Positions 33,649 to 63,189 of a stretch of 64,000 bases of DNA are shown piece by piece. Numbering within the stretch: position 1 is the first letter of the stretch; every line of letters begins with the position of its first letter. Where the stretch lies: assembly GCA_021287065.1 (NCBI GenBank), contig JAJTBE010000196.1, positions 2,539 through 66,538 on the forward strand, read 5' to 3'. The translations under genes were made by a program, and so were the position numbers. Below the pieces are notes generated by a model. It was given only the letters and a program-made list of their open reading frames with translations. It was not told where the DNA came from and did no database searches. This stretch comes from Bacillota bacterium. GTDB lineage: Bacteria; Vulcanimicrobiota; JAJTBE01.

Positions 33649-34692
33649 ATGATAAACAGAATTCCATCACTGGATGTATCAGGGCTGCAGCCCGCACCTC
33701 AGATTAAGGGGTCAGCTTCCCCGGTTATAAAAGAAGAAGCTGATCCCAAAGACGCAGTTATACTCACCGGCTCAAAACCACGGGCGGGGCTGAAAGCTTC
33801 GATTGACAGCCTGCCTGAAATCATTGCGGGCCGAATCGAAGAAAAAGAAGCAAAATCCTCAGTATTAAATACAGAAACAACCTCAGTTAAACACGAAAAA
33901 CCTCCAGCTGTACTCACACAGATGGAAGAGTCACCCTCAATAAGCGAGCTGCTTGGCAGCGATCCTATCACAGTTTTATCCGCAAAGCCTAAGGTAGAAG
34001 GCGGTATTGATGTGGGTCCTTTTGAAAAGAAGCTTCAGGAAGAACTCGGAAGCCTCTCCCGCATTCAGAACCCCTGGGACATAAACGGCCTTCAGGGAAA
34101 AGTAGCCTCAATACAGGAGCTTAACGACACATTTGCGGAAATCACAGCAGACAAATCCATTCCTTACGAGTTTCTTCCGGACGGCTGTTATGCCAGAGCG
34201 CATACCGCCGCACAGAAATATCTCGACAAAGGCATAAACTGCGCAAAACTCTATGTTATGCTTGATAATATAGACTGGAACAATCCTTCAGGATTCCCGG
34301 ATGAAAGATTCAGAGCGGAAAATAAATTCACCAAAGGCGAATGGTGGTATCATGTGGCTCCCGTAGTATTTGCAAAAGACGAATCGGGAAACACAGAAGG
34401 ATATGTAATTGATCCTGCGGTGAACAAAGATCGCCCTATAAAAGCTTCGGAATGGATAAAAGCTTTCTGGACTGAAGATTTTAAGGTTGTTTTTGACACA
34501 ACCCACGCAGATATTTACGAACCTCAGCTTGAAGATTTTACAAACAACCAGCCCAGGGAATTTTCGCAGAAGGAATTTGACAAGTGGATGCCTGAAGCTT
34601 TGAAAACCAACAAAGAATACGGCGCAGAGCTGAAGCAGATTAAGGATAGTTATTACGCCCACCATCCGGAGGAAAAACCGGACAGAGCGTGA
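33649..34692 (+). CDS. Protein-glutamine glutaminase (PG)-like Cys-His-Asp deamidase domain protein with an N-terminal ~190-aa extension
   Basis: LPDGCYARAH and WYHVAPVVFAKDESGNTEGYVIDPAV match my memory of the Chryseobacterium protein-glutaminase catalytic region (PVDGCYARAH ... SYHVAVLV ... IIDPSL), which carries the Cys/His/Asp triad. No signal peptide. N-terminus MINRIPSLDV. Confidence 0.6.
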   Translation: MINRIPSLDVSGLQPAPQIKGSASPVIKEEADPKDAVILTGSKPRAGLKASIDSLPEIIAGRIEEKEAKSSVLNTETTSVKHEKPPAVLTQMEESPSISELLGSDPITVLSAKPKVEGGIDVGPFEKKLQEELGSLSRIQNPWDINGLQGKVASIQELNDTFAEITADKSIPYEFLPDGCYARAHTAAQKYLDKGINCAKLYVMLDNIDWNNPSGFPDERFRAENKFTKGEWWYHVAPVVFAKDESGNTEGYVIDPAVNKDRPIKASEWIKAFWTEDFKVVFDTTHADIYEPQLEDFTNNQPREFSQKEFDKWMPEALKTNKEYGAELKQIKDSYYAHHPEEKPDRA

Positions 34693-54123: not shown

Positions 54124-54492
54124 TTGTTAAAAAAGGTTCTTATTGCTGATGATGCGCTTTTTATGCGCATGATGCTCAGGGACATTCTCACAAAAAACGG
54201 GTTTGAAGTTATCGGAGAAGCTGAAAACGGAGAAGAAGCTGTTGAAAGATTCAGAGAACTGAAACCCGACATAGCGCTGATTGATATTCTCATGCCTTTA
54301 ATGGACGGGCTTACAGCCACTGAAAAAATCCTTCAGATCGATCCTGATGCCCATGTGGTTATGATTAGCGCTCTGAGTGAATCTCAGTATGTGGATAAAG
54401 CCCTTGCAATAGGAGCCAGGGATTTTATCGTAAAACCGTTCTCCCCGCCTAATATCGCCGAAGTTCTGGCAAGAGTGGGTAAAAAGGAGTAG
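54124..54492 (+). CDS. Single-domain CheY-like response regulator
   Basis: TTG start after GGAGG. LIADDALFMRMML...IALIDILMPLMDGL...RDFIVKPF. Confidence 0.75.
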   Translation: MLKKVLIADDALFMRMMLRDILTKNGFEVIGEAENGEEAVERFRELKPDIALIDILMPLMDGLTATEKILQIDPDAHVVMISALSESQYVDKALAIGARDFIVKPFSPPNIAEVLARVGKKE

Positions 54493-55746
54493 CTACTTCT
54501 TTATTACCACAAGGTCACCCTCGGATATATCATAATCCTTTGAGGTATCGGTTATCTCTCCGAGGCTTGCCCCTTCAAAAACCTTACCGACAGTAAATAC
54601 ACCGATTTTAAAATATCTCTCGCCTATGATGGTGGTAATCTTATCATCGAAGAGCGGGAGTTTTTTTACTATCAGGAGTTCATCACCGGGTACAATTGCC
54701 AGTTCTTTTCCACCGTTTATAAATACTCTCTTCTCGTTTTCGATTTTGGCTATTTTCAGTTTGGCGTTTTTATCGTTGAAATCCACAGGCATAAGTGTTT
54801 CTCCGATAAGATCCGCATTTTTTGCCTGAGCTATGTACAAAGCCAAATCAGGATCATAGGGTCTGAAATTTATGGCTTTTTTGTAGAAATCCACGGCTTC
54901 GTTATATTTCCCCTTTTTCTCCATATATATGCCCATATTTTTGAGAGCAGTGAAATCGTTGGGGTTTTTATCGAGCTGATCCTGCCATACAGCCGAGGCG
55001 TCATTCCATTTACGCTTCAAAGCCAGCTTTGTGCCTTCATTGTCGGCATCTTCAAGGTTTCTCTTGCGGATGGTGAAATGGGGGGTAAATTTATAAAGAT
55101 TATTTCTGAAAAGTTCTTCGGCATACTTGAAAATCATATCCTTATCCGAGGGAAGATAAGAACTGTCATAGCAGTCATAATCCTTACTGAAACTCTTTCT
55201 GTCCCTGACTGCTCCGATTATCCGCTTTTTATCCTTTGAATAGAAAACCAGATCTATTCTTACAACGCCGGATTGATTCATATAAGGCACATCGTAGGGA
55301 ATCCGTCTGTGAACCCGTTTGCCATTGTCATAATAATAATCATCGCGGTAATATCTTCTGTATCTTGTACCTGTTGAACATTTGGCATCAACTTTGCCGG
55401 AAATAACTCCGTCCACTTCAAGGGTGTCAGCCATTTCATGAAGCATATCCTGATCAGGGGTATCATGAAAACTAATCTGGGCGGATTCAAGCATCTCGTT
55501 GGTCTGTTTCCGATCAAGAACCCTGAAAAACTTCTGATCCCTGATTTTCTGAGCGAACATATCGGCAAGCTCCTCGCCTATTCCGGGGTTATCCCCAAGA
55601 ACATCAGTTACGGCGATAATTTCCATTTTGCCGATATCCCATGCAGATCGTTCATAGTTTTCAAGTTTAATTTCCGTCCCCGCAGCAAAACAGGGACCAC
55701 TGAAAATCGAAACAAAAAGAAATACAAACAGAAATAAAAACTGCAT
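54493..55746 (-). CDS. Hypothetical secreted protein, possibly a CsgG/LpoB-like lipoprotein with TPR
   Basis: Signal peptide. The N-terminal domain pattern is a weak match. TPR-like KGKYNEAVDFYKKAI. Confidence 0.4.
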   Translation of the reverse strand: MQFLFLFVFLFVSIFSGPCFAAGTEIKLENYERSAWDIGKMEIIAVTDVLGDNPGIGEELADMFAQKIRDQKFFRVLDRKQTNEMLESAQISFHDTPDQDMLHEMADTLEVDGVISGKVDAKCSTGTRYRRYYRDDYYYDNGKRVHRRIPYDVPYMNQSGVVRIDLVFYSKDKKRIIGAVRDRKSFSKDYDCYDSSYLPSDKDMIFKYAEELFRNNLYKFTPHFTIRKRNLEDADNEGTKLALKRKWNDASAVWQDQLDKNPNDFTALKNMGIYMEKKGKYNEAVDFYKKAINFRPYDPDLALYIAQAKNADLIGETLMPVDFNDKNAKLKIAKIENEKRVFINGGKELAIVPGDELLIVKKLPLFDDKITTIIGERYFKIGVFTVGKVFEGASLGEITDTSKDYDISEGDLVVIKK

Positions 55747-55834: not shown

Positions 55835-56788
55835 TCAGAGGTTTATTCTTCTCGCTGTCTGATAATGTCCCGACCAGTAAACATTATTAAGGCTTGTCAC
55901 TTCAACAGGTCTTTTTGCCGTAGGTCTGTGTACAAATTCGCCGTTTCCGATGTAGATACCTACATGAGTATAGTTGCCTCTTTTGTAGGTGTTTTTAAAA
56001 TATACCAGATCGCCGGGTTTAAGCTGTGATTTATCTACCTTTGCTCCGTAATTGGCAAGGCCCTGAGCTGAATACTGGTGTTCAAACCCTTTTGGAGCGC
56101 CTGACCATTCGATAACAGATGAAACAAAATCGGCACAGCGGGCGAAAGATCCCTTGCGGAAATTCTTACCGTCAAATTTGACGGCTGTATTGACCAGTTT
56201 CTGTCCATAAGGAGTTTGAACCTGTTTTTCGGTTTTTGTTTCCGCTGGTTTCTGAGCAAGAGCAGCTTCTTTTGCCCTTTCTCTTTCCTGCTGAACTGCA
56301 AGCCCTTCTGCGTGAATATCTTCAGGGGCTGACGGAGCATGACCGGGCATATTGGTATCATTAACAACTGTGGGGTTAGTGGAGCTTGTGAAGCCGGGGG
56401 GGAGCTGGGACTGCTGCTGACTGACCATTTCAACGGCAGCAGGGGCATTGCTCATTTCCGATGTTTCGTGAGCCATTGCCGGTGTGGTAATAGCAACGGC
56501 GCTGAACAGAGTGAGTCCGATAAGGAAGCTGCTTCCTATTCTGGACATGGTATCTGCCATTCTGGTTAACATTCCGGGACCTGAAGAATCTTTAAGATAA
56601 GAAGCTTCCGACTGCTGGGCGGCTACTTCCGAAGGAATGTTAATCTCGGATTTATCTTCCACTGCTCCTGATGATGCTGATGATAAATCAGGAGTGGTAA
56701 CCTTAATGACTACCCCTTCGTTTTTTGAACCCGGAATATGTAAAGTATAATTATTTGCTGATATGTTTGCTGAGTTAATTCTATCCAT
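55835..56788 (-). CDS. NlpC/P60 (C40) family peptidoglycan peptidase with an MDRIN N-terminus and one internal TM
   Basis: Start set at MDRINSANIS, preceded by GAGGAGG. The track extends to 56833. Hydrophobic segment SFLIGLTLFSAVAITTPAMA. C-terminal Cys/His motifs (ARCADFVSSV, THVGIYIG). Confidence 0.65.
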   Translation of the reverse strand: MDRINSANISANNYTLHIPGSKNEGVVIKVTTPDLSSASSGAVEDKSEINIPSEVAAQQSEASYLKDSSGPGMLTRMADTMSRIGSSFLIGLTLFSAVAITTPAMAHETSEMSNAPAAVEMVSQQQSQLPPGFTSSTNPTVVNDTNMPGHAPSAPEDIHAEGLAVQQERERAKEAALAQKPAETKTEKQVQTPYGQKLVNTAVKFDGKNFRKGSFARCADFVSSVIEWSGAPKGFEHQYSAQGLANYGAKVDKSQLKPGDLVYFKNTYKRGNYTHVGIYIGNGEFVHRPTAKRPVEVTSLNNVYWSGHYQTARRINL

Positions 56789-56947
56789 GAAGGCAATACC
56801 TCCTCGGAGCCATGATACTCCTTTTAGCAGCATGGATCAATATAAAAAATATTAAAATAATGTAAACTTCGAAACATAAAAACGAGGCTGCCCGGAAACG
56901 GAAAGCCTCATTGGATTTTTTTTATATTATTGAAGATAAGTCCGGTT

Positions 56948-58189
56948 TTAACCGCCCGGATCATCTATATGATTTTCAAGATAGTGTGGTTCCTCGGAGC
57001 CTTTAGCCCAGTCGATTTCGAAAGCTTTATCGAAAGCGCTGTTGACTTTTTTATCAAGAACTTCCACATCCGCTTCACGGTTGACTTTGAATCCGGCATT
57101 TGTCCAGTTGGCGCTGCCAAGGATAACCTGATCATCATCAAACACACCGATTTTTGCGTGGAGTTTGTTTTCGGTTGCCTTATCGGGGACATACCATCTT
57201 ACGGGAACTCCGGCATCTTTAAGCTGGGCGGCGGCTTTTTCGTTTACCGCAAAATCCTTGATTTTGAGGGGATTAAGGAGAATTCTTACATCAAGGCCTC
57301 TCTTATGGGCATCAATGAGATTCTCAACGGTTTCTCTCTGTGAAAGGCAGAAAAGTTCGCAGTGGATTGATTTCTTAGCATTTCTGATAGCTCTGTTTAC
57401 GCTCATGCCGATGGTCTGGTCATTTCTGTCAAGGCTGCTGTTGATGAGCTGAACTGCTGAATTTCCCTCAGGATGTGCAGGGGTCTTGTCGATCCAGGGA
57501 AGATCTTTCTGTTCGCCGCCGGATGTAAGCCAGTCTTTGCGGAACATCCATTCCATATTGTCAACTGCAGGACCTTCAACCATAACATCAACATCGCGGT
57601 TGTTGGGTGAATGCTGGCCCCAGTTCATTCCGCCGATAATCGCCTTGTTTCCGTCAACAATCATCATCTTTACATGGTCGATCTGGCCGAATTTTGATTC
57701 GGGGGAGTTAGCTTCCTTTACAGGATAAAGAAGAACATCTACGCCGTTTTTGCGTAATTTTTCAATGGCTTTGCCTTTTTCAGCTTCCATAGGCAATTCG
57801 TTGGGAGGATCCATAATAATCTGGACTTTAACGCCGTTTTTTGCGTCCTGTATGAGAAGATCCACCAAATCTTTTTTATCGAGGCTGAACATTTCGATCT
57901 GGATAGATTTTTTGGCTCCTCTGACAAGGTCCTCGATATTTTTGAAGATATCGCTGGCACTATCACCCTTACTTATTGAGCCGTCCATAAGGGGAGTTAC
58001 TTTGTTGCCGGTGGAAAAATATCTGCGTGAACTTTCCGGGATTTTATCCCAGTTTACATTATCCGACGAGCTTTTTTCAAAACCATCCTTAACACTCTGC
58101 TGATTTTCGCCTCTGGCAGAGGGTTTGGTTTTTGCTTTGCTCTGTACGGGAGCTGCATCGTTTGCTCTTATGCCGTTTATTCTGTCCAT
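56948..58189 (-). CDS. Phospholipase D superfamily protein (two HKD motifs) with an MDRIN N-terminus
   Basis: Start set at MDRINGIRAND, preceded by AGGGAGGA. HVKMMIVDG and LHAKIGVFDDDQVILGSANWT. Confidence 0.7.
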   Translation of the reverse strand: MDRINGIRANDAAPVQSKAKTKPSARGENQQSVKDGFEKSSSDNVNWDKIPESSRRYFSTGNKVTPLMDGSISKGDSASDIFKNIEDLVRGAKKSIQIEMFSLDKKDLVDLLIQDAKNGVKVQIIMDPPNELPMEAEKGKAIEKLRKNGVDVLLYPVKEANSPESKFGQIDHVKMMIVDGNKAIIGGMNWGQHSPNNRDVDVMVEGPAVDNMEWMFRKDWLTSGGEQKDLPWIDKTPAHPEGNSAVQLINSSLDRNDQTIGMSVNRAIRNAKKSIHCELFCLSQRETVENLIDAHKRGLDVRILLNPLKIKDFAVNEKAAAQLKDAGVPVRWYVPDKATENKLHAKIGVFDDDQVILGSANWTNAGFKVNREADVEVLDKKVNSAFDKAFEIDWAKGSEEPHYLENHIDDPGG

Positions 58190-58496
58190 AATATCCTCCC
58201 TGAAGAATAAAGGGATTGTTACTTCTACCACATCCATGATTATATCACAAGTGTAAATATTTTATGTTATCAACATGTTAACATCCGGATAAAAATAGTC
58301 CTTTAGACCATATATACCAGTCTGTTTAACTGCTTCATTATTTCTATTAAACCGAGCTGTTTTACCGGATTTATTGATTGAAATCTGAAAATAACTCAGG
58401 AGCGGGCAGCCCCTAATGCTGCTGAATCAGTAATACTCTTATACTCTCCAGCAATAAAGCTCAAATCACCAGTAAACTTCATAACGGTAACAAAAC

Positions 58497-58842
58497 GCCG
58501 GCGACTGCCGGATCGCAGGCGTCCCGCCTGTCCCCCGGTTAAACAATCTCGTTTTCTATCCTCAATCTCCAAAATGGATATACAACTCCAGCAATAGGGG
58601 CGGTAATAATTATAGAGTTGGCAAGCATTCGGGGGGATCGCGGTATGAGTTTGCGTCGCGGGCGGACCTGCGGGTCCGCGTCGCGGTTGGAAACCGCTCC
58701 TACAATCCCTTGTCAAGCTTGTGGTTATGGGGGTTACTGGCGGTTGGCGGGTGGTTTTGGGAACCGGGGGACAGGCGGGGACGCCTGCGATCCGGCAGTC
58801 GCTGGCTGAGCTTGTGGTTATGGGGGTTACTGGCGGTTGGCG
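58497..58842. repeat. Composite repeat region: 44-nt inverted repeats (58497-58540 vs 58762-58806) flanking 221 bp, plus two identical 34-nt direct repeats (58716-58749 and 58809-58842)
   Basis: Seen directly. gccggcgactgccggatcgcaggcgtcccgcctgtcccccggtt is the reverse complement (one indel) of aaccgggggacaggcggggacgcctgcgatccggcagtcgctggc. agcttgtggttatgggggttactggcggttggcg occurs twice. Confidence 0.75.
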
Positions 58843-58857
58843 TTTTTTTTTGGGATC

Positions 58858-59025
58858 CGGGGGACCAAAGGACCGACCGGGGACTATGGGGATTTGGGGA
58901 CCGTCAGAGTGAACCACGCTTTTTTGGAAAAGCGAGGTCTCCTCCGAACCTCCCTCCTTGAAAAACAGGAGTATGAGGTTGAGGTTTTAAGTGAATTTTA
59001 CTAATTCAGTGGCATTGGGGTTCAG
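58858..59025. repeat. Dispersed intergenic repeat element, copy 3 (core only), followed by an A-rich low-complexity tract
   Basis: Aligns to the cores of copies 1 and 2. Downstream at 59030-59120 there are repeated c/aaaaa motifs. Confidence 0.8.
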
Positions 59026-59127
59026 GGGAATCTTTTTTTTTAAAAAGTTCCCCCTGAAAAACGGCCTCTCCGAAAAAAACGGTCTTCCAAAAAAGCTCCC
59101 CCAAAAATAATCCCAACAAAAAGCGGA

Positions 59128-61587
59128 TTATATAAACAGGTTTACATTTGCCTGGCTTGCTCTTTCCAGATATGTGGCAACTCCGCCTTCTTCAATATCA
59201 TCAATGAGTTCGGATTTTTTGATTCCCATAATCTCCATTGTCATTGTGCAGGCTATGAGTTTAATTCCCTGTTCTCTGGCGCTTTCGATTAACGCATCAA
59301 GGCTTTCAACATTTTTATTTTCCATTACATACTTCATCATTGAAGTTCCCAGACCGCCAAAATGCATTTTTGAAAGGGCGAGCTGATCCGGACCTTTGGG
59401 CATCATGCTGCCAAACATTGTGGAAAGAAGATCTTTCTTTTCCTTCGGGGCATCTTTTTTCTTGAGAACGTTCAAGCCCCAGAATGTGAAGAACATATTG
59501 ACCTTGCTGCCGATGGATGCTGCTCCGTTGGCAATGATGAATGAAGCTAGAGCGCGGTCGAGATCATCGCTGAAAACGATAATCGTAATCTCTTTTCCGT
59601 CAGGACTTTTCAGAACCATATCTGAAGCGGCGGCAGATCCTTTTCTGATGATTGCGGTATATGTACCCTTATCACTTTCAATGGAAACAAGTTCGTTTCC
59701 GGTAGCCATACACCAGGATTTGGCATCTGTGGGGAATCCTGAATCGGAGGCGCAAATCTTAATAGTATCGCCGATGTTGATTTCGTCCATTTTTGCCTTT
59801 AATTTCATAATGGGTCCGGGACATTGAATTCCACAGGCGTTAATCTCATGTTCCACTTTTATTTCTCCTTTTGGTGCTGAATCGGAGGATTCGATACTTT
59901 TGTTGAGGCAAGCCTGAACAAGTGCTTTTCCTGCCTGTTTTTTTGCAGCATCGTAGGTTTTCCATCCACCGCTGAGGTTTTTGGTTTTAAACCCGTGCTG
60001 GTTGAGAATTCTGCAGGCGACATAACTTCTCTGTCCGGAAGCACACATTACTATATAAGTTTTTGATTTATCAAGGGTATTGAGTTTGTTTCTGATTTCA
60101 TCCACGGGAATATTGATGGATCCCGGTATTGTGCCTGAAAGTCTTACTTCAGCTTTCCCTCTGACATCAAGAATGACATTCTTTTCATAATCAAGACAGT
60201 CAACTTCGTCCCAGCGGATAACATCCACATATTTTCTGAGAATATTGCCTGCAACAAAACCTGCCATATTGACGGGATCTTTTGCAGATGAGAAAGGCGG
60301 GGCGTAAGCAAGTTCAAGTTCTTCGAGATCAAACACTGTCATGCCGGATCTTATTGCTGTGGCAAAAACATCTATTCTCTTATCAACTCCATCAATACCT
60401 ACTATCTGTGCTCCGAAAAGCTTTCCGGATCCTGGATCAAATGTGATTTTAACTGCCATCATTGTTGAACCGGGATAATAGGAAGCATGGGAAGACGCAT
60501 GGTTGTAAGAAGCCAGATAAGGGATATTATTTCTTTTCAGGTTCTTTTCGTTCATACCAGTTGCAGCAACCACCAGATCAAAAACCTTGACTATGGAAGT
60601 TCCCTGAGTTCCCTTATAAACCGAATTTCCACCAAGAGCATTTTCCGCTGCGATTCTGCCCTGTTTGTTTGCCGGTCCTGCAAGGGGTATGAGGGTCTGA
60701 GCGCCTGATATGTAATCTTTTACTTCAACCACATCGCCTACTGCAAAAATATCGGGGTTGGAAGTTCTCATGTGTTCGTCGGTTTTAATCCCACCGAGTT
60801 TTCCGATTTCGAGACCTGCATTTTTTGCCAACTGGATTTCCGGTCTGACACCAATGGAGAGGATAACCATATCACAGGGGATCTCAGTTCCGCCCTGTGT
60901 TGTTACATAAGTTTTCTTTCCTCTTTTTTCAAACGATTTAACCCCGTCGCCAAGATGGAGATTAACTCCCTTATCCACAAGGTGGGTCTGAACGAGTGAA
61001 GCCATCTCAACATCGATGGGCGCCATAACCTGTTCAAGCATTTCGACAACAGTAACTTTAACATCCCTGGTTATGAGGTTTTCAGCCATTTCCAGACCTA
61101 TGAAGCCTCCGCCTACGATAACAGCTTCCTCTATTTGCTTTTTATCGATGACAGTTTTAATTTCATCCATATCCGGAATATTTCTCAATGAATAGATTGA
61201 ATCAAGGCTTATTCCGTGAAGGGGCGGTTTTAACGGTGCAGCGCCGGGTGAAAGAATGAGCTTATCATATTCTTCGGTATAGAGTTTATGATTTTTCAGA
61301 TCTTTTACTTCTATAATCTTGTTTTCCGGGTCTATGGAAATCACTTCACAGTGGTTTCTCACATCAATTCCGAATCTGGTTCTAAGTGCTTCCGGAGTGG
61401 TAACAAGAAGATCGGATCTGTCCTTAATCTCCAGACCAATATGATAGGGCAGGCCGCAGTTGGCAAAAGAGATAAATTCTCCCTTTTCAAAAACAATTAT
61501 TTCAGCATTTTCATCAAGTCTTCTGGCTCTTGCGGCAGCACTTGCTCCACCGGCAACTCCGCCAACTATACAAATTTTTGTCGGCAT
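59128..61587 (-). CDS. Four-domain persulfide/CoA-disulfide reductase: CoADR-like flavoprotein + rhodanese + TusA-like + DsrE-like
   Basis: Start set at MPTKICIVGGVAGG, preceded by AAGGAGA. SFANCGLPYH active site. Rhodanese CASGQRS. TusA-like CPGP. C-terminal DsrE-like ITIIVFSDD...FFTFWGL...LIACTMTM. Confidence 0.75.
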   Translation of the reverse strand: MPTKICIVGGVAGGASAAARARRLDENAEIIVFEKGEFISFANCGLPYHIGLEIKDRSDLLVTTPEALRTRFGIDVRNHCEVISIDPENKIIEVKDLKNHKLYTEEYDKLILSPGAAPLKPPLHGISLDSIYSLRNIPDMDEIKTVIDKKQIEEAVIVGGGFIGLEMAENLITRDVKVTVVEMLEQVMAPIDVEMASLVQTHLVDKGVNLHLGDGVKSFEKRGKKTYVTTQGGTEIPCDMVILSIGVRPEIQLAKNAGLEIGKLGGIKTDEHMRTSNPDIFAVGDVVEVKDYISGAQTLIPLAGPANKQGRIAAENALGGNSVYKGTQGTSIVKVFDLVVAATGMNEKNLKRNNIPYLASYNHASSHASYYPGSTMMAVKITFDPGSGKLFGAQIVGIDGVDKRIDVFATAIRSGMTVFDLEELELAYAPPFSSAKDPVNMAGFVAGNILRKYVDVIRWDEVDCLDYEKNVILDVRGKAEVRLSGTIPGSINIPVDEIRNKLNTLDKSKTYIVMCASGQRSYVACRILNQHGFKTKNLSGGWKTYDAAKKQAGKALVQACLNKSIESSDSAPKGEIKVEHEINACGIQCPGPIMKLKAKMDEINIGDTIKICASDSGFPTDAKSWCMATGNELVSIESDKGTYTAIIRKGSAAASDMVLKSPDGKEITIIVFSDDLDRALASFIIANGAASIGSKVNMFFTFWGLNVLKKKDAPKEKKDLLSTMFGSMMPKGPDQLALSKMHFGGLGTSMMKYVMENKNVESLDALIESAREQGIKLIACTMTMEIMGIKKSELIDDIEEGGVATYLERASQANVNLFI

Positions 61588-61683
61588 TAAATCATCTCCT
61601 TTGCATTGTTTCACATAGAACAACATAAAATAAGTGGAGGGTGTTCCCTCCACTTATATATATTTTAACCAATATTCAATTGA

Positions 61684-63084
61684 TTAGCTTTTTCTGGGTG
61701 ATCCGTCGGGCCATACCTTGGGTCCTTTTTTGGTAGGATCAAATTTTACGCCCAGGCTTTCAACAGCTTCGTCCCACTTTGAATCTTTGGCAAATGCCAG
61801 TTCTTTATAGTCGGGACCAAGTGATGATGTTGTGGGTGCAAAAATGTGGAGACCCTTTGAATTGGGATGCTGCTGAGGATTGACCTCATTGGCAAATACC
61901 GCTTCTTCAAATGCTTTCACAGTTTCCTGTGCAGCTTTCTTCAGGTTGTCATCTTTGGTTGTGTCGATGATGTTTGTTGAAAGCTGATGGAGGTCTCTCA
62001 TATCTCTGTAAGGATCCCATCCGCCGCCGTAATTTTCGGCATTGGCGATAGCCTGTTTTACGGTGTCTTTGTCGCTGGTTTTGATAACAGCATCAGCAAG
62101 ACCGTCAACAGCATCCTTAAGCTGATCCATCTTTGTAAGATCGGTGGCTGAGAATGTAGGAATATCGTTGTTGTGTTCTGCATTGACATCAACGATGATT
62201 TTTGCAAATTCTCTGGGTGTAACATCAACTTTGTAAAGATTGCTCTGAACTCTGTTGAGAGCTTCGCCCATTGTTCTTCCGCCGAGCATTGAGTTGTATG
62301 TCCAGCCTGCGCCGCCTTCACTTTCTTCTGAAGCGAGAAGGATCTTTGCGGTGTTTCTGTGTTCATAGGCAACTTCTGTGCTGGCCATAAGGCATGCATC
62401 GTATCCGATAATGTCGATATCTTTGCCTGTTTCAGCTTTAACTTTTTTGAGAGCTGCATCGATCTCAGGAAGTTTGCCGAATTTGCCATCGGTTTCGTCT
62501 GACATTGCGCCGGTCCATCCGCCGCCATGGTCGTTGAAGATAACAGCAATATGATCAGCGGGGAATTTCTTAACTGCATCGGAGATGAGTTTGAACATTG
62601 TGTCGCCGCTTGACATATCCACATGCTGTCCGTGATCAGCGATAACTTCGGAATTGAGCTGGCCCATCTTGTCGTCTTTTGTGACATAGAGGGTGCGGCA
62701 GCCTGACCATGAAATTGTGTTGGGATCTGTAGGAGGAGTCTGTGATTCTCCTTCTTCACCGGGTCCTTTTTTGCCGAATCCGATAGGTGCCGGTTTGGGA
62801 CCTACATCGATGATTGCAGCAATATGGGTGTTTGCATCTGAACCGATCATTTCCATCTGGTCAACATTGCCGACCTGGAACTGGGTGAGGTTGCAGTCTG
62901 CAGCGATAAAGTTGAGAACGAGCCATTTTTTATGGGGTTTAATAGCTCCATCTTCGCTTTTTCCACCGAGATCCACTTTGTCAGCCGGGGGCTGATTTGT
63001 AGCTTCAGCTTCTTTTTTGGGAGCGGCGGGGCCTGCTCCTGAGAGGTAAGTCTGATTAAGTCTTACATCATTAATTCTGTCCAT
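61684..63084 (-). CDS. Clostripain-like (C11) cysteine peptidase with an MDRIN N-terminus
   Basis: Start MDRINDVRLN, preceded by AAGGAGGAG. Catalytic His/Cys context VIFNDHGGGW ... IIGYDACLMAS. Confidence 0.6.
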   Translation of the reverse strand: MDRINDVRLNQTYLSGAGPAAPKKEAEATNQPPADKVDLGGKSEDGAIKPHKKWLVLNFIAADCNLTQFQVGNVDQMEMIGSDANTHIAAIIDVGPKPAPIGFGKKGPGEEGESQTPPTDPNTISWSGCRTLYVTKDDKMGQLNSEVIADHGQHVDMSSGDTMFKLISDAVKKFPADHIAVIFNDHGGGWTGAMSDETDGKFGKLPEIDAALKKVKAETGKDIDIIGYDACLMASTEVAYEHRNTAKILLASEESEGGAGWTYNSMLGGRTMGEALNRVQSNLYKVDVTPREFAKIIVDVNAEHNNDIPTFSATDLTKMDQLKDAVDGLADAVIKTSDKDTVKQAIANAENYGGGWDPYRDMRDLHQLSTNIIDTTKDDNLKKAAQETVKAFEEAVFANEVNPQQHPNSKGLHIFAPTTSSLGPDYKELAFAKDSKWDEAVESLGVKFDPTKKGPKVWPDGSPRKS

Positions 63085-63189
63085 TTAGTCTCCTCCTTGA
63101 GTCTGATTTCTCAATTCTTATTTCAGGGATAATTTGGTTTTACAGAGCCAAATCCTCCCCGGGAATTATTAAAAATATGTTAACTAATC

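Follow-up and report, generated by a model that had tools for sequence, protein, structure and literature searches.

A disordered leader shared by four unrelated hydrolases of the Candidatus Xenobia lineage as a possible FlgM-like export tag

Four enzymes from unrelated families, a clostripain-family (C11) cysteine protease, a phospholipase D (PLD) superfamily protein, an NlpC/P60 peptidoglycan endopeptidase (P60) and a protein-glutaminase-like deamidase, are encoded in a 64-kb stretch of contig JAJTBE010000196.1 (hereafter the window, meaning the whole stretch of 64,000 nucleotides analysed) and, judged by sequence comparison, share a lineage-specific, non-hydrophobic N-terminal leader of around 40 residues, predicted to be disordered, with two short motifs. 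Because conserved positions in a disordered segment recur on unrelated folds, this leader is very probably a shared linear motif that is recognised in trans. With a probability of roughly 40%, we propose in addition that it is a FlgM-like tag for flagellar type III export on a set of secreted hydrolases, a route suggested by its likeness to FlgM together with the gene content of related bacteria. In the proposed course of events, the leader would act as a targeting motif recognised in trans, would stand in for Sec signals on enzymes with substrates outside the cytoplasm and hence mediate export, and would bring the hydrolases, unfolded, to the gate of the fT3SS (flagellar type III secretion system). 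Outside the cell they would form a lytic arsenal and so correspond, in nature, to what engineered FlgM fusions achieve and to the Yersinia phospholipase YplA. What appears new is that a single sequence-defined leader is common to hundreds of proteins from several enzyme families within one class; neither FlgM-like leaders on hydrolases nor an Eremiobacterota-specific secretion signal turned up in literature searches.

Four enzymes and their start codons

Profile scans against Pfam and six-frame scans of open reading frames (ORFs) covered the whole window and matched the domains NLPC_P60, PLDc_2 (twice), Peptidase_C11 and Gln_deamidase_2 in the proteins concerned. The C11 protease (61684..63084, minus strand; 466 aa; PF03415, E = 1e-37, residues 59-443) starts MDRINDVRLN, with the Shine-Dalgarno sequence (SD) AGGAGG (63092..63097, minus strand) 7 nt ahead of its ATG at 63084. 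The PLD protein with its two HKD motifs (56948..58189, minus strand; 413 aa; PF13091 twice, E = 7e-51) starts MDRINGIRAN, 5 nt behind the SD GGGAGG (58195..58200, minus strand; ATG at 58189), and the P60 endopeptidase (55835..56788, minus strand; 317 aa; PF00877, E = 1.2e-15, residues 232-314) starts MDRINSANIS, 10 nt behind the SD GAGGAGG (56799..56805, minus strand; ATG at 56788). The deamidase lies on the plus strand (33649..34692; 347 aa), starts MINRIPSLDV and matches PF18626 above the cut-off (E = 1.6e-21, residues 159-272).

The catalytic domains of all four are ordinary members of their families. The catalytic residues H186 and C231 of the C11 protease are invariant in 42 homologues, and its AlphaFold2 (AF2) model, with a mean predicted local distance difference test score (pLDDT) of 82, finds clostripain (9cip) and secreted Bacteroides C11 proteases as the best folds of the Protein Data Bank (PDB) with Foldseek (E = 4e-18). 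Equally, H172/K174/D179 and H344/K346/D351, which make up the two HxK(x)4D motifs of the PLD protein, are invariant in 42 sequences, and the mean pLDDT of its AF2 model is 90.

The first-pass annotation of the window had claimed that the three hydrolases encoded on the minus strand start with MDRIN after a strong SD, and the start codons bear this out, as each MDRIN ATG, and only that ATG, is preceded by an SD. The originally called ORFs (55835-56833, 56948-58237 and 61684-63084) all hold MDRIN in frame, while the in-frame ATGs situated further upstream in P60 (56833) and in PLD (58237) lack an SD, the latter following directly upon a TATAAT box. In the database entries with NCBI names, C11 is 466 aa and PLD 413 aa long, as a start at MDRIN would give, and the deamidase is annotated at NCBI with its MINRIP start. 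A six-frame scan for M.{0,2}RI[NDP] at the head of open frames of 60 codons or more retrieved only the C11, PLD and P60 genes and the deamidase gene at 33649. The 15 nt that code for MDRIN differ between the three genes at synonymous sites and the flanking DNA is 25-37% identical, which is the random level; the identity is therefore held at the protein level and does not stem from a recent copy of the DNA. For the 5' ends, duplication or gene conversion of recent date was rejected, as the DNA is unrelated outside these 15 nt.

It is accordingly very improbable that translation begins at other sites, with MDRIN left untranslated or shared by chance. This explanation can point to the upstream in-frame ATGs of P60 and PLD, to internal Met codons of P60 situated just ahead of a signal-like segment (see below) and to a gene call by JGI that extends a P60 homologue upstream. 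It leaves unaccounted for, however, that strong SDs occur only at the MDRIN ATGs, that a five-residue identity is found three times among approximately 55 genes with synonymous differences, that hundreds of homologues conserve the leader and that the C11, PLD and deamidase entries named by NCBI are as long as these starts would make them. An internal start of P60, which would turn its hydrophobic segment into an ordinary signal peptide, was considered and appears not to apply, as no SD precedes those Met codons and the leader is kept in the P60 homologue P0241.

The leader and its place in the lineage

In its general form the leader begins M-x-I-[NK]-[RK]-[ILV], continues with about 25-40 polar residues and reaches a second motif, [KP]-D-x-V-x-[LI]-[GS], around 34 residues in. 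Among 120 C11 homologues the start reads M-[DEKN]-I-[NK]-[RK]-[ILV]-[GN] and motif 2 [KSG]-D-x-V-x-[LI]-G, and the stretch between the motifs contains many Q, K, S, T and P residues and few L, aromatic or M residues. Both motifs are found in 88 of the 120 homologues, with the D at median position 34; among these 88, chosen by a regular expression that already limits the following positions to small residue classes, position +2 is V in 83, position +4 is L or I in 84 and position +5 is G in 78. In an alignment of 42 C11 sequences, 40-66% identical overall, conservation reaches 90% or more at the leader residues I4, D35 and V37 and also at many residues of the catalytic core. Like the double-glycine leaders of peptide exporters (colicin V, ...LDSVSGG), the leader is a non-Sec N-terminal segment that ends in a D-S-V-S-G-G-like string; unlike in these, where hydrophobic residues at -4, -7 and -12 precede a G-G, G-A or G-S cleavage site, the hydrophobic positions are out of register and the cargo is a folded enzyme of 300-470 aa instead of a peptide. 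A double-glycine leader of a peptidase-containing ATP-binding cassette (ABC) transporter was rejected, as a second Gly occurs in only 29/88 and neither a C39 peptidase nor an ABC exporter is found in the window.

The four leaders of the window represent the pattern to different degrees. The C11 leader (residues 1-43; 62956..63084, minus strand) runs from MDRIN to PPADKVDLGG and the deamidase leader (residues 1-43; 33649..33777, plus strand) from MINRIP to DPKDAVILTGS, while the PLD leader (residues 1-40; 58070..58189, minus strand) ends in QQSVKDGFEK with a degenerate motif 2 (K-D-x-F) and the P60 leader (residues 1-30; 56699..56788, minus strand) in NEGVVIKV, a weak motif 2 at short spacing. 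A hidden Markov model (HMM) built solely from C11 leaders and run over all six-frame ORFs of the window retrieved C11, then the deamidase from Met1 (E = 0.005) and then PLD (E = 0.087), so that the relationship of the deamidase to the set, at which the first-pass annotation had hinted, is supported. With a mixed leader HMM, the PLD protein of the window scores 10.4 bits and P60 4.1 bits. The nearest orthologues of PLD keep K-D-x-[FYLV] at motif 2, and more distant PLD and HD-PLD proteins of the lineage carry the full D-x-V-x-[IL]-S form (MKIDRNIP...PEDKVNISS, MQINDRNI...QNDSVQLSN). P60 reads as the weakest member. A single homologue (P0241, 68% identical) keeps the MDRIN start (MDRINSANVS); another of the lineage has a clear leader, MRTLSGV...GDSVTLSAG, and others begin with different N-termini that equally lack a signal. 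As a separate observation, the P60 homologues P0243, P0245-P0248, P0255 and P0259 of the same phylum have no signal peptide and show low-complexity N-termini rich in Met, Gln and Gly (such as ...MMMFMMMYQQMQMQQMLLMMLLMQQG), and a further subgroup starts M..F.[RG]IQ.V..RI..I..RFK.

Seen across the lineage, MDRIN as a shared tag, as initially proposed, holds in part: the identity is real in the three genes, but MDRIN itself is only the local variant of the longer leader. Orthologues start MDINRI, MEINRL or MDMNRI, as compared with the three identical MDRIN starts in this genome, and identical starts within one genome suggest co-adaptation of the cargo to one receptor, whose identity they do not indicate. 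By alignment, the leader is near-invariant across the C11 homologues of Ca. Xenobia and is carried by hundreds of homologues in several enzyme families. In about 0.6 Mb of Xenobia loci scanned for its spread, it heads every C11 paralogue, often three to four in tandem, and is found in addition on a 221-aa protein (L004:664) and on a repeat protein (L013:7014, L026:8637). The tandem arrays of three to four C11 paralogues occur in loci L006, L007, L008, L014 and L015 (for example L007:4361-9431), each paralogue with its own leader and some with C-terminal extensions (around 570 aa). Next to a C11 gene, a 529-aa leader protein (L003:8300-9889, plus strand; MDKINKPG...EDKVEISRNA) combines a zinc-protease-like HEQGH motif with several Gly/Ala-rich, glycine-zipper hydrophobic segments and has no match in Pfam; it may act as an effector on membranes.

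The absence of a classical signal peptide from the three hydrolases, with an internal hydrophobic segment in P60 alone, had been noted on first inspection, and the Kyte-Doolittle profiles agree. The maximal 19-residue mean is at most 0.9 in C11, PLD and the deamidase, which thus have no hydrophobic segment, and the leader contains neither a hydrophobic h-region, expected with about 10-20 residues within the first 35 or so, nor a lipobox nor a twin-arginine motif, which sets it apart from Sec, lipoprotein and twin-arginine translocation signals. Only P60 has a hydrophobic segment, FLIGLTLFSAVAITTPAMA, at residues 84-106; this signal-peptide-like internal segment, IGSSFLIGLTLFSAVAITTPAMA|HE (56471..56539, minus strand), reaches a 19-residue mean of 1.81 and is followed by an A-x-A motif. 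A hydrophobic N-terminus is present in none of the 120 C11 homologues, in 0/87 of the nearest versus 18/33 of the distant PLD homologues and in 2/28 of the nearest versus 77/92 of the distant P60 homologues. Ordinary Sec or lipoprotein signals head the C11 genes that were retrieved from Actinomycetota, Planctomycetota, Myxococcota, Bacteroidota and archaea, and clostripain and the Bacteroides C11 proteases are secreted. Like those signals elsewhere, the leader stands directly ahead of the C11, PLD or P60 domain, and in the homologue comparison it occupies the place of the Sec or lipoprotein signal peptides found in more distant homologues, which, where named, belong mostly to other phyla. As many other proteins of this organism and its relatives carry classical signal peptides, the leader marks a distinct route or function and is not an odd Sec signal of the lineage. 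In these genomes, 'no signal peptide' should consequently not be taken to mean 'cytoplasmic' for proteases, lipases and cell-wall hydrolases.

The leaders had been described at first sight as polar and disorder-like, and AF2, run with family alignments on C11 and PLD as two unrelated folds, predicts disorder for both. The pLDDT is around 34 for residues 1-43 of C11 and 36-50 for residues 1-40 of PLD, as compared with values of at least 90 for the catalytic domains, and in neither model does the leader show secondary structure or pack onto the enzyme. A propeptide that docks intramolecularly was discarded, as the leader is undocked in either model. These models also bear on a broader explanation, namely that the leader is a cytoplasmic handle or pro-region, which binds a sigma-28-like factor, a chaperone or an inhibitor, keeps the enzymes latent or anchors them at the membrane or pole, while the enzymes act inside the cell or leave it by lysis or in vesicles. 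Clostripain and protein-glutaminase are indeed made as pro-enzymes, the PLD superfamily includes cytoplasmic enzymes, and the order of leader, linker, hydrophobic segment and catalytic domain in P60 is the topology of a membrane-anchored anti-sigma factor; furthermore, motif 2 corresponds, as we presume, to the first part of the sigma-28-binding region of FlgM. On the other hand, besides the undocked leaders, one inhibitory propeptide for four unrelated folds is unlikely, the leaders stand exactly at the signal-peptide position of the homologues, and a cytoplasmic clostripain-like protease, cell-wall hydrolase or deamidase would have no obvious substrate or would be harmful. We regard a cytoplasmic role as unlikely.

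Likeness to FlgM and candidate export routes

The preferred reading, a flagellar type III export tag, derives from the N-terminal half of FlgM. Like the leader, it opens with M-x-I-[ND]-x-[IF] and, after some 30 residues that are polar and disordered, reaches D-x-[VI]-x-[LI]-S at around residues 32-40, without a hydrophobic core, as seen in Bacillus subtilis (MKINQF...DKIEIS) and Aquifex (MVNRIE...DKVTLS). Unlike FlgM, the hydrolases have no C-terminal sigma-28-binding helices; a catalytic domain follows directly after the leader, and the last residue of motif 2 in their leaders is mostly Gly, where FlgM has Ser. The FlgM models (PF04316 and TIGR03824) match neither the full-length proteins nor the leaders, and by this family measure the four hydrolases are not FlgM family members. 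FlgM proteins obtained independently were compared with a mixed leader profile of 40 positions, termed A2 and built from 40 C11 leaders, nine PLD leaders and one deamidase leader. FlgM of B. subtilis, of which the exact sequence was verified, scores 10.7 bits (p = 4e-5) over residues 1-39, and FlgM of Aquifex (PDB 1RP3_B), starting MVNRIE, scores 8.1 bits (p = 2e-4), its EDKVTLS at residues 34-40 falling on the same positions as D35 and V37 of C11. None of approximately 1,800 unrelated ORFs reached 10 bits with an alignment from the first Met.

The likeness has also been approached from the DNA, with a pattern derived from the leaders (GGAGG, ATG-VAN-ATH-VAN, a gap of 66-96 nt and GAY-NNN-GTN-NNN-HTN-GG). 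Viral contigs, used as a control, gave 45 matches, which is estimated to be roughly the number expected by chance, and metagenomes gave at least 120 loci, with 88 in-frame N-termini that fit the pattern among the matches listed. Among these 88 listed N-termini, three C11 genes scored 25-41 bits with A2, four small proteins 11-23 bits and a Cys-repeat peptide (L176) 23.3 bits, while the rest scored at most 8.5. The four small proteins are 86-132 aa long, three of them 86-88 aa and the ORF in L191 longer, and the two that were looked up match hypothetical proteins labelled Oscillospiraceae. Three of the four are encoded directly upstream of flgN-flgK, the canonical position of flgM, and these are the ones of 86-88 aa (L140:657-923, minus strand; L153:4419-4679, minus strand; L169:1077-1340, plus strand). 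Among the neighbours, Pfam identifies FlgN in L153 and L140 (PF05130, E = 6e-11 and 5e-13) and FlgK in L153 and L169 (FlgK_D1, Flg_bb_rod and Flg_bbr_C). The Pfam FlgM model misses the small proteins of L140 and L153, the two that were scanned, at E up to 1; given their position, the L140, L153 and L169 proteins are probably divergent FlgM with an unusual C-terminus (...ELAALIFMG). Taken together, the likeness of the leader to FlgM N-termini appears reproducible but modest. As for the Cys-repeat peptide, the 136-aa protein in L176 (4594-5004, plus strand) carries seven SGGCG[HY][ST]KP repeats behind an N-terminus that resembles the leader (MQIDKTNITG...GDKVSLGKDEG). It is encoded beside a radical-SAM/SPASM enzyme and looks like a precursor of a ribosomally synthesised and post-translationally modified peptide with the same kind of leader.

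The signal for the fT3SS is an uncleaved, intrinsically disordered N-terminal peptide, and foreign proteins leave the cell when fused to FlgM (PMC3372961). In the AF2 predictions, residues 1-43 of C11 and 1-40 of PLD are disordered as well. The first 36 residues of FlgM or FlgJ are sufficient to export a reporter through the fT3SS, and the phospholipase YplA of Yersinia enterocolitica as well as CiaB/CiaC, FlaC and FspA of Campylobacter jejuni lack a Sec signal and are directed to flagellar export by their N-terminal 20-36 residues (PMC2764114). Like the YplA and Cia passengers, enzymes or virulence factors of which one is a phospholipase, the leader hydrolases carry no N-terminal Sec signal; unlike here, where one leader occurs on several families and export is only predicted, those signals share no recognisable motif and are single cases per organism. 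As to the gene content of relatives, Ca. Eudoremicrobiaceae, a related family, encodes flhA, fliP, fliI, flgG, fliA and fliS (PMC9259500, supplement), expresses flagellar genes and is predicted to be predatory, with many degradative enzymes and diverse secretion systems (PMC9259500).

Several observations weigh against flagellar export. The similarity to FlgM is weak in absolute terms and the score is partly compositional, because leaders and FlgM N-termini are both polar and disordered; FlgM of Escherichia coli scores 2.5 bits with A2 (p = 0.014), barely above noise. With E values as high as 10 allowed, the leaders retrieved nothing useful from Pfam, from NCBIfam or among PDB sequences, FlgM models included, and A2 run against 1.84 billion representative proteins returned one irrelevant match, the profile being too short for a database of this size. 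Motif 2 lies, presumably, around the start or edge of the sigma-28-binding region of FlgM, so that binding instead of export is conceivable. In addition, P60 barely scores (4.1 bits) and has a Sec-like segment 84 residues in; its catalytic domain could thus reach the periplasm without the leader, which may then stay cytoplasmic. Concerning the surroundings, Pfam scans found no flagellar or other secretion genes in the window, and the long-contig neighbourhoods of leader genes (on contigs of 7.6 Mb, 585 kb and 82 kb) contain no recurrent neighbour and no secretion genes. A tblastn search with 35 flagellar, motor and chemotaxis proteins of E. coli against the window and 34 Xenobia loci (0.58 Mb) gave only a spurious CheA fragment; from a sample this small and this focused on C11 genes, nothing follows about absence. 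Looked for by eye only, sigma-28-type promoters gave no convincing match upstream. The first-pass annotation had asked for a test of enrichment near secretion-system genes; none of the latter stands beside a leader gene in the window or in the inspected neighbourhoods. Its wider proposal of a common export or targeting route is supported in part: the N-terminal similarity is conserved, modular, polar and in place of signal peptides, but secretion genes are lacking nearby and P60 has a Sec-like segment of its own. As further observations from these neighbourhoods, a conserved 142-aa ORF upstream of C11 (63190-63618) was considered as a dedicated chaperone and dismissed because it is absent from the orthologous locus, and in the 7.6-Mb Xenobia genome a leader-bearing HD-PLD gene is directly followed by two group II intron reverse transcriptase/maturase genes of identical length (L051:12987-16532; 442 aa, RVT_1 and GIIM), each after a 50-aa ORF.

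The same leader might serve another or undescribed non-Sec machine, be it cargo loading of a contractile injection system or a type VI secretion system (T6SS), an injectisome-type type III secretion system (T3SS) or a lineage-specific exporter, with the FlgM likeness due to convergence; this we consider somewhat unlikely. A modular, conserved and disordered segment in place of signal peptides would be expected here as well, and the cargo, comprising protease, phospholipase, cell-wall hydrolase, glutamine deamidase and the HExxH/glycine-zipper protein of L003:8300, resembles an effector repertoire. The payloads of PVC and other extracellular contractile injection systems (eCIS) have in common a disordered loading signal at the N-terminus, around 50 residues long. 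The loading signals of eCIS (PVC, Afp) and the MIX, FIX and RIX markers of T6SS effectors place a short disordered or small N-terminal module on unrelated toxin or enzyme domains, glutamine deamidases included, as does the leader. Unlike the leader genes, however, such cargo genes cluster with the injection operon, and eCIS cargo genes normally adjoin the particle operon, while no eCIS, T6SS or injectisome genes stand beside leader genes in the window or the 12 inspected neighbourhoods, and no leader gene there lies in or beside an injection operon. Sheath, tube and baseplate families are absent from the Pfam matches in the window and six long-contig neighbourhoods, which still allows for a distant operon. 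Furthermore, the independent FlgM matches would be left unexplained, while the predicted predatory relatives with their diverse secretion systems (PMC9259500) are in keeping with such a machine. In sum, the nearest functional precedents appear to be FlgM and the YplA/Cia-type passengers of the flagellar exporter, with the cargo tags of eCIS and T6SS as the main alternative.

Extending the flagellar reading to the whole lineage leads to a bolder and rather doubtful suggestion, namely that Xenobia exchanged the Sec signals of an entire hydrolase set, including many C11 paralogues, PLD, P60, protein-glutaminase and membrane-active proteins, for a leader that feeds a dedicated one-step export, either a repurposed fT3SS (an 'FlgM-tag') or an undescribed pathway. 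The leader would then be the first T3SS-type signal recognisable from sequence alone. Type III export signals notoriously defy definition at the sequence level, and an alignable leader, if the suggestion is true, would provide a handle on how such signals are read. Equally, the secretomes of an uncultured and possibly predatory lineage of rumen, gut, sediment and groundwater would become predictable from genomes, and biotechnology might gain a secretion tag that is compact, natural and similar in use to the engineered fusions with FlgM.

Genomic setting

Close homologues of the window proteins cluster with metagenome-assembled genomes (MAGs) of Ca. Xenobia / Vulcanimicrobiota (= Eremiobacterota), which originate from rumen, sediment, groundwater and similar samples. 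The C11 and deamidase proteins are deposited under the label 'MAG: Firmicutes/Bacillota bacterium', and the labels of relatives read Chloroflexota, Armatimonadetes, Synergistia and others; because this clustering with Ca. Xenobia / Vulcanimicrobiota holds for all close homologues, the phylum labels of the contig and of several relatives are probably wrong.

The remaining genes of the window are of housekeeping type and encode subunits of a Nuo/Mbh-type complex, RuvC, Ser/Thr kinases, glycosyltransferases and a large PAS/GAF histidine kinase. Also present are the [FeFe]-hydrogenase maturase HydF and a radical-SAM/BATS gene, read as HydG. A further gene of this type, situated between the PLD and C11 genes (59128-61653, minus strand), encodes a single polypeptide of 841 aa in which a CoA-disulfide-reductase-like flavoprotein is fused to rhodanese, TusA and DsrE-like domains; it is present as well in the Logan contig L001, which covers the same locus. 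The gene at 54493-55746 (minus strand) encodes a lipoprotein-like protein with the signal MQFLFLFVFLFVSIFSGPCFA and tetratricopeptide repeats, which matches DUF6340, CsgG and FlgT_C, all below the curated cut-offs. It adjoins a gene for a single-domain CheY-like receiver (54124-54492), identified by eye from the translation, and the two genes are the only, and faint, motility-related hints in the window.

A scan of the window against Rfam matched no family. The AT-rich intergenic region between the PLD and CoA-disulfide reductase genes contains a GC-rich repeat element (58497-58865), equally without an Rfam match, with inverted arms (58497-58540 and 58762-58806) that are 97-100% complementary and about 220 nt apart, and with two direct 78-nt copies at 58695 and 58788 that are 82% identical. 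It may represent an insertion resembling a miniature inverted-repeat transposable element or a repetitive extragenic palindromic element. The repeat ORFs of L013 and L026, composed of FVGAPDKSAGGW units, resemble this element, a likeness noted by eye only.

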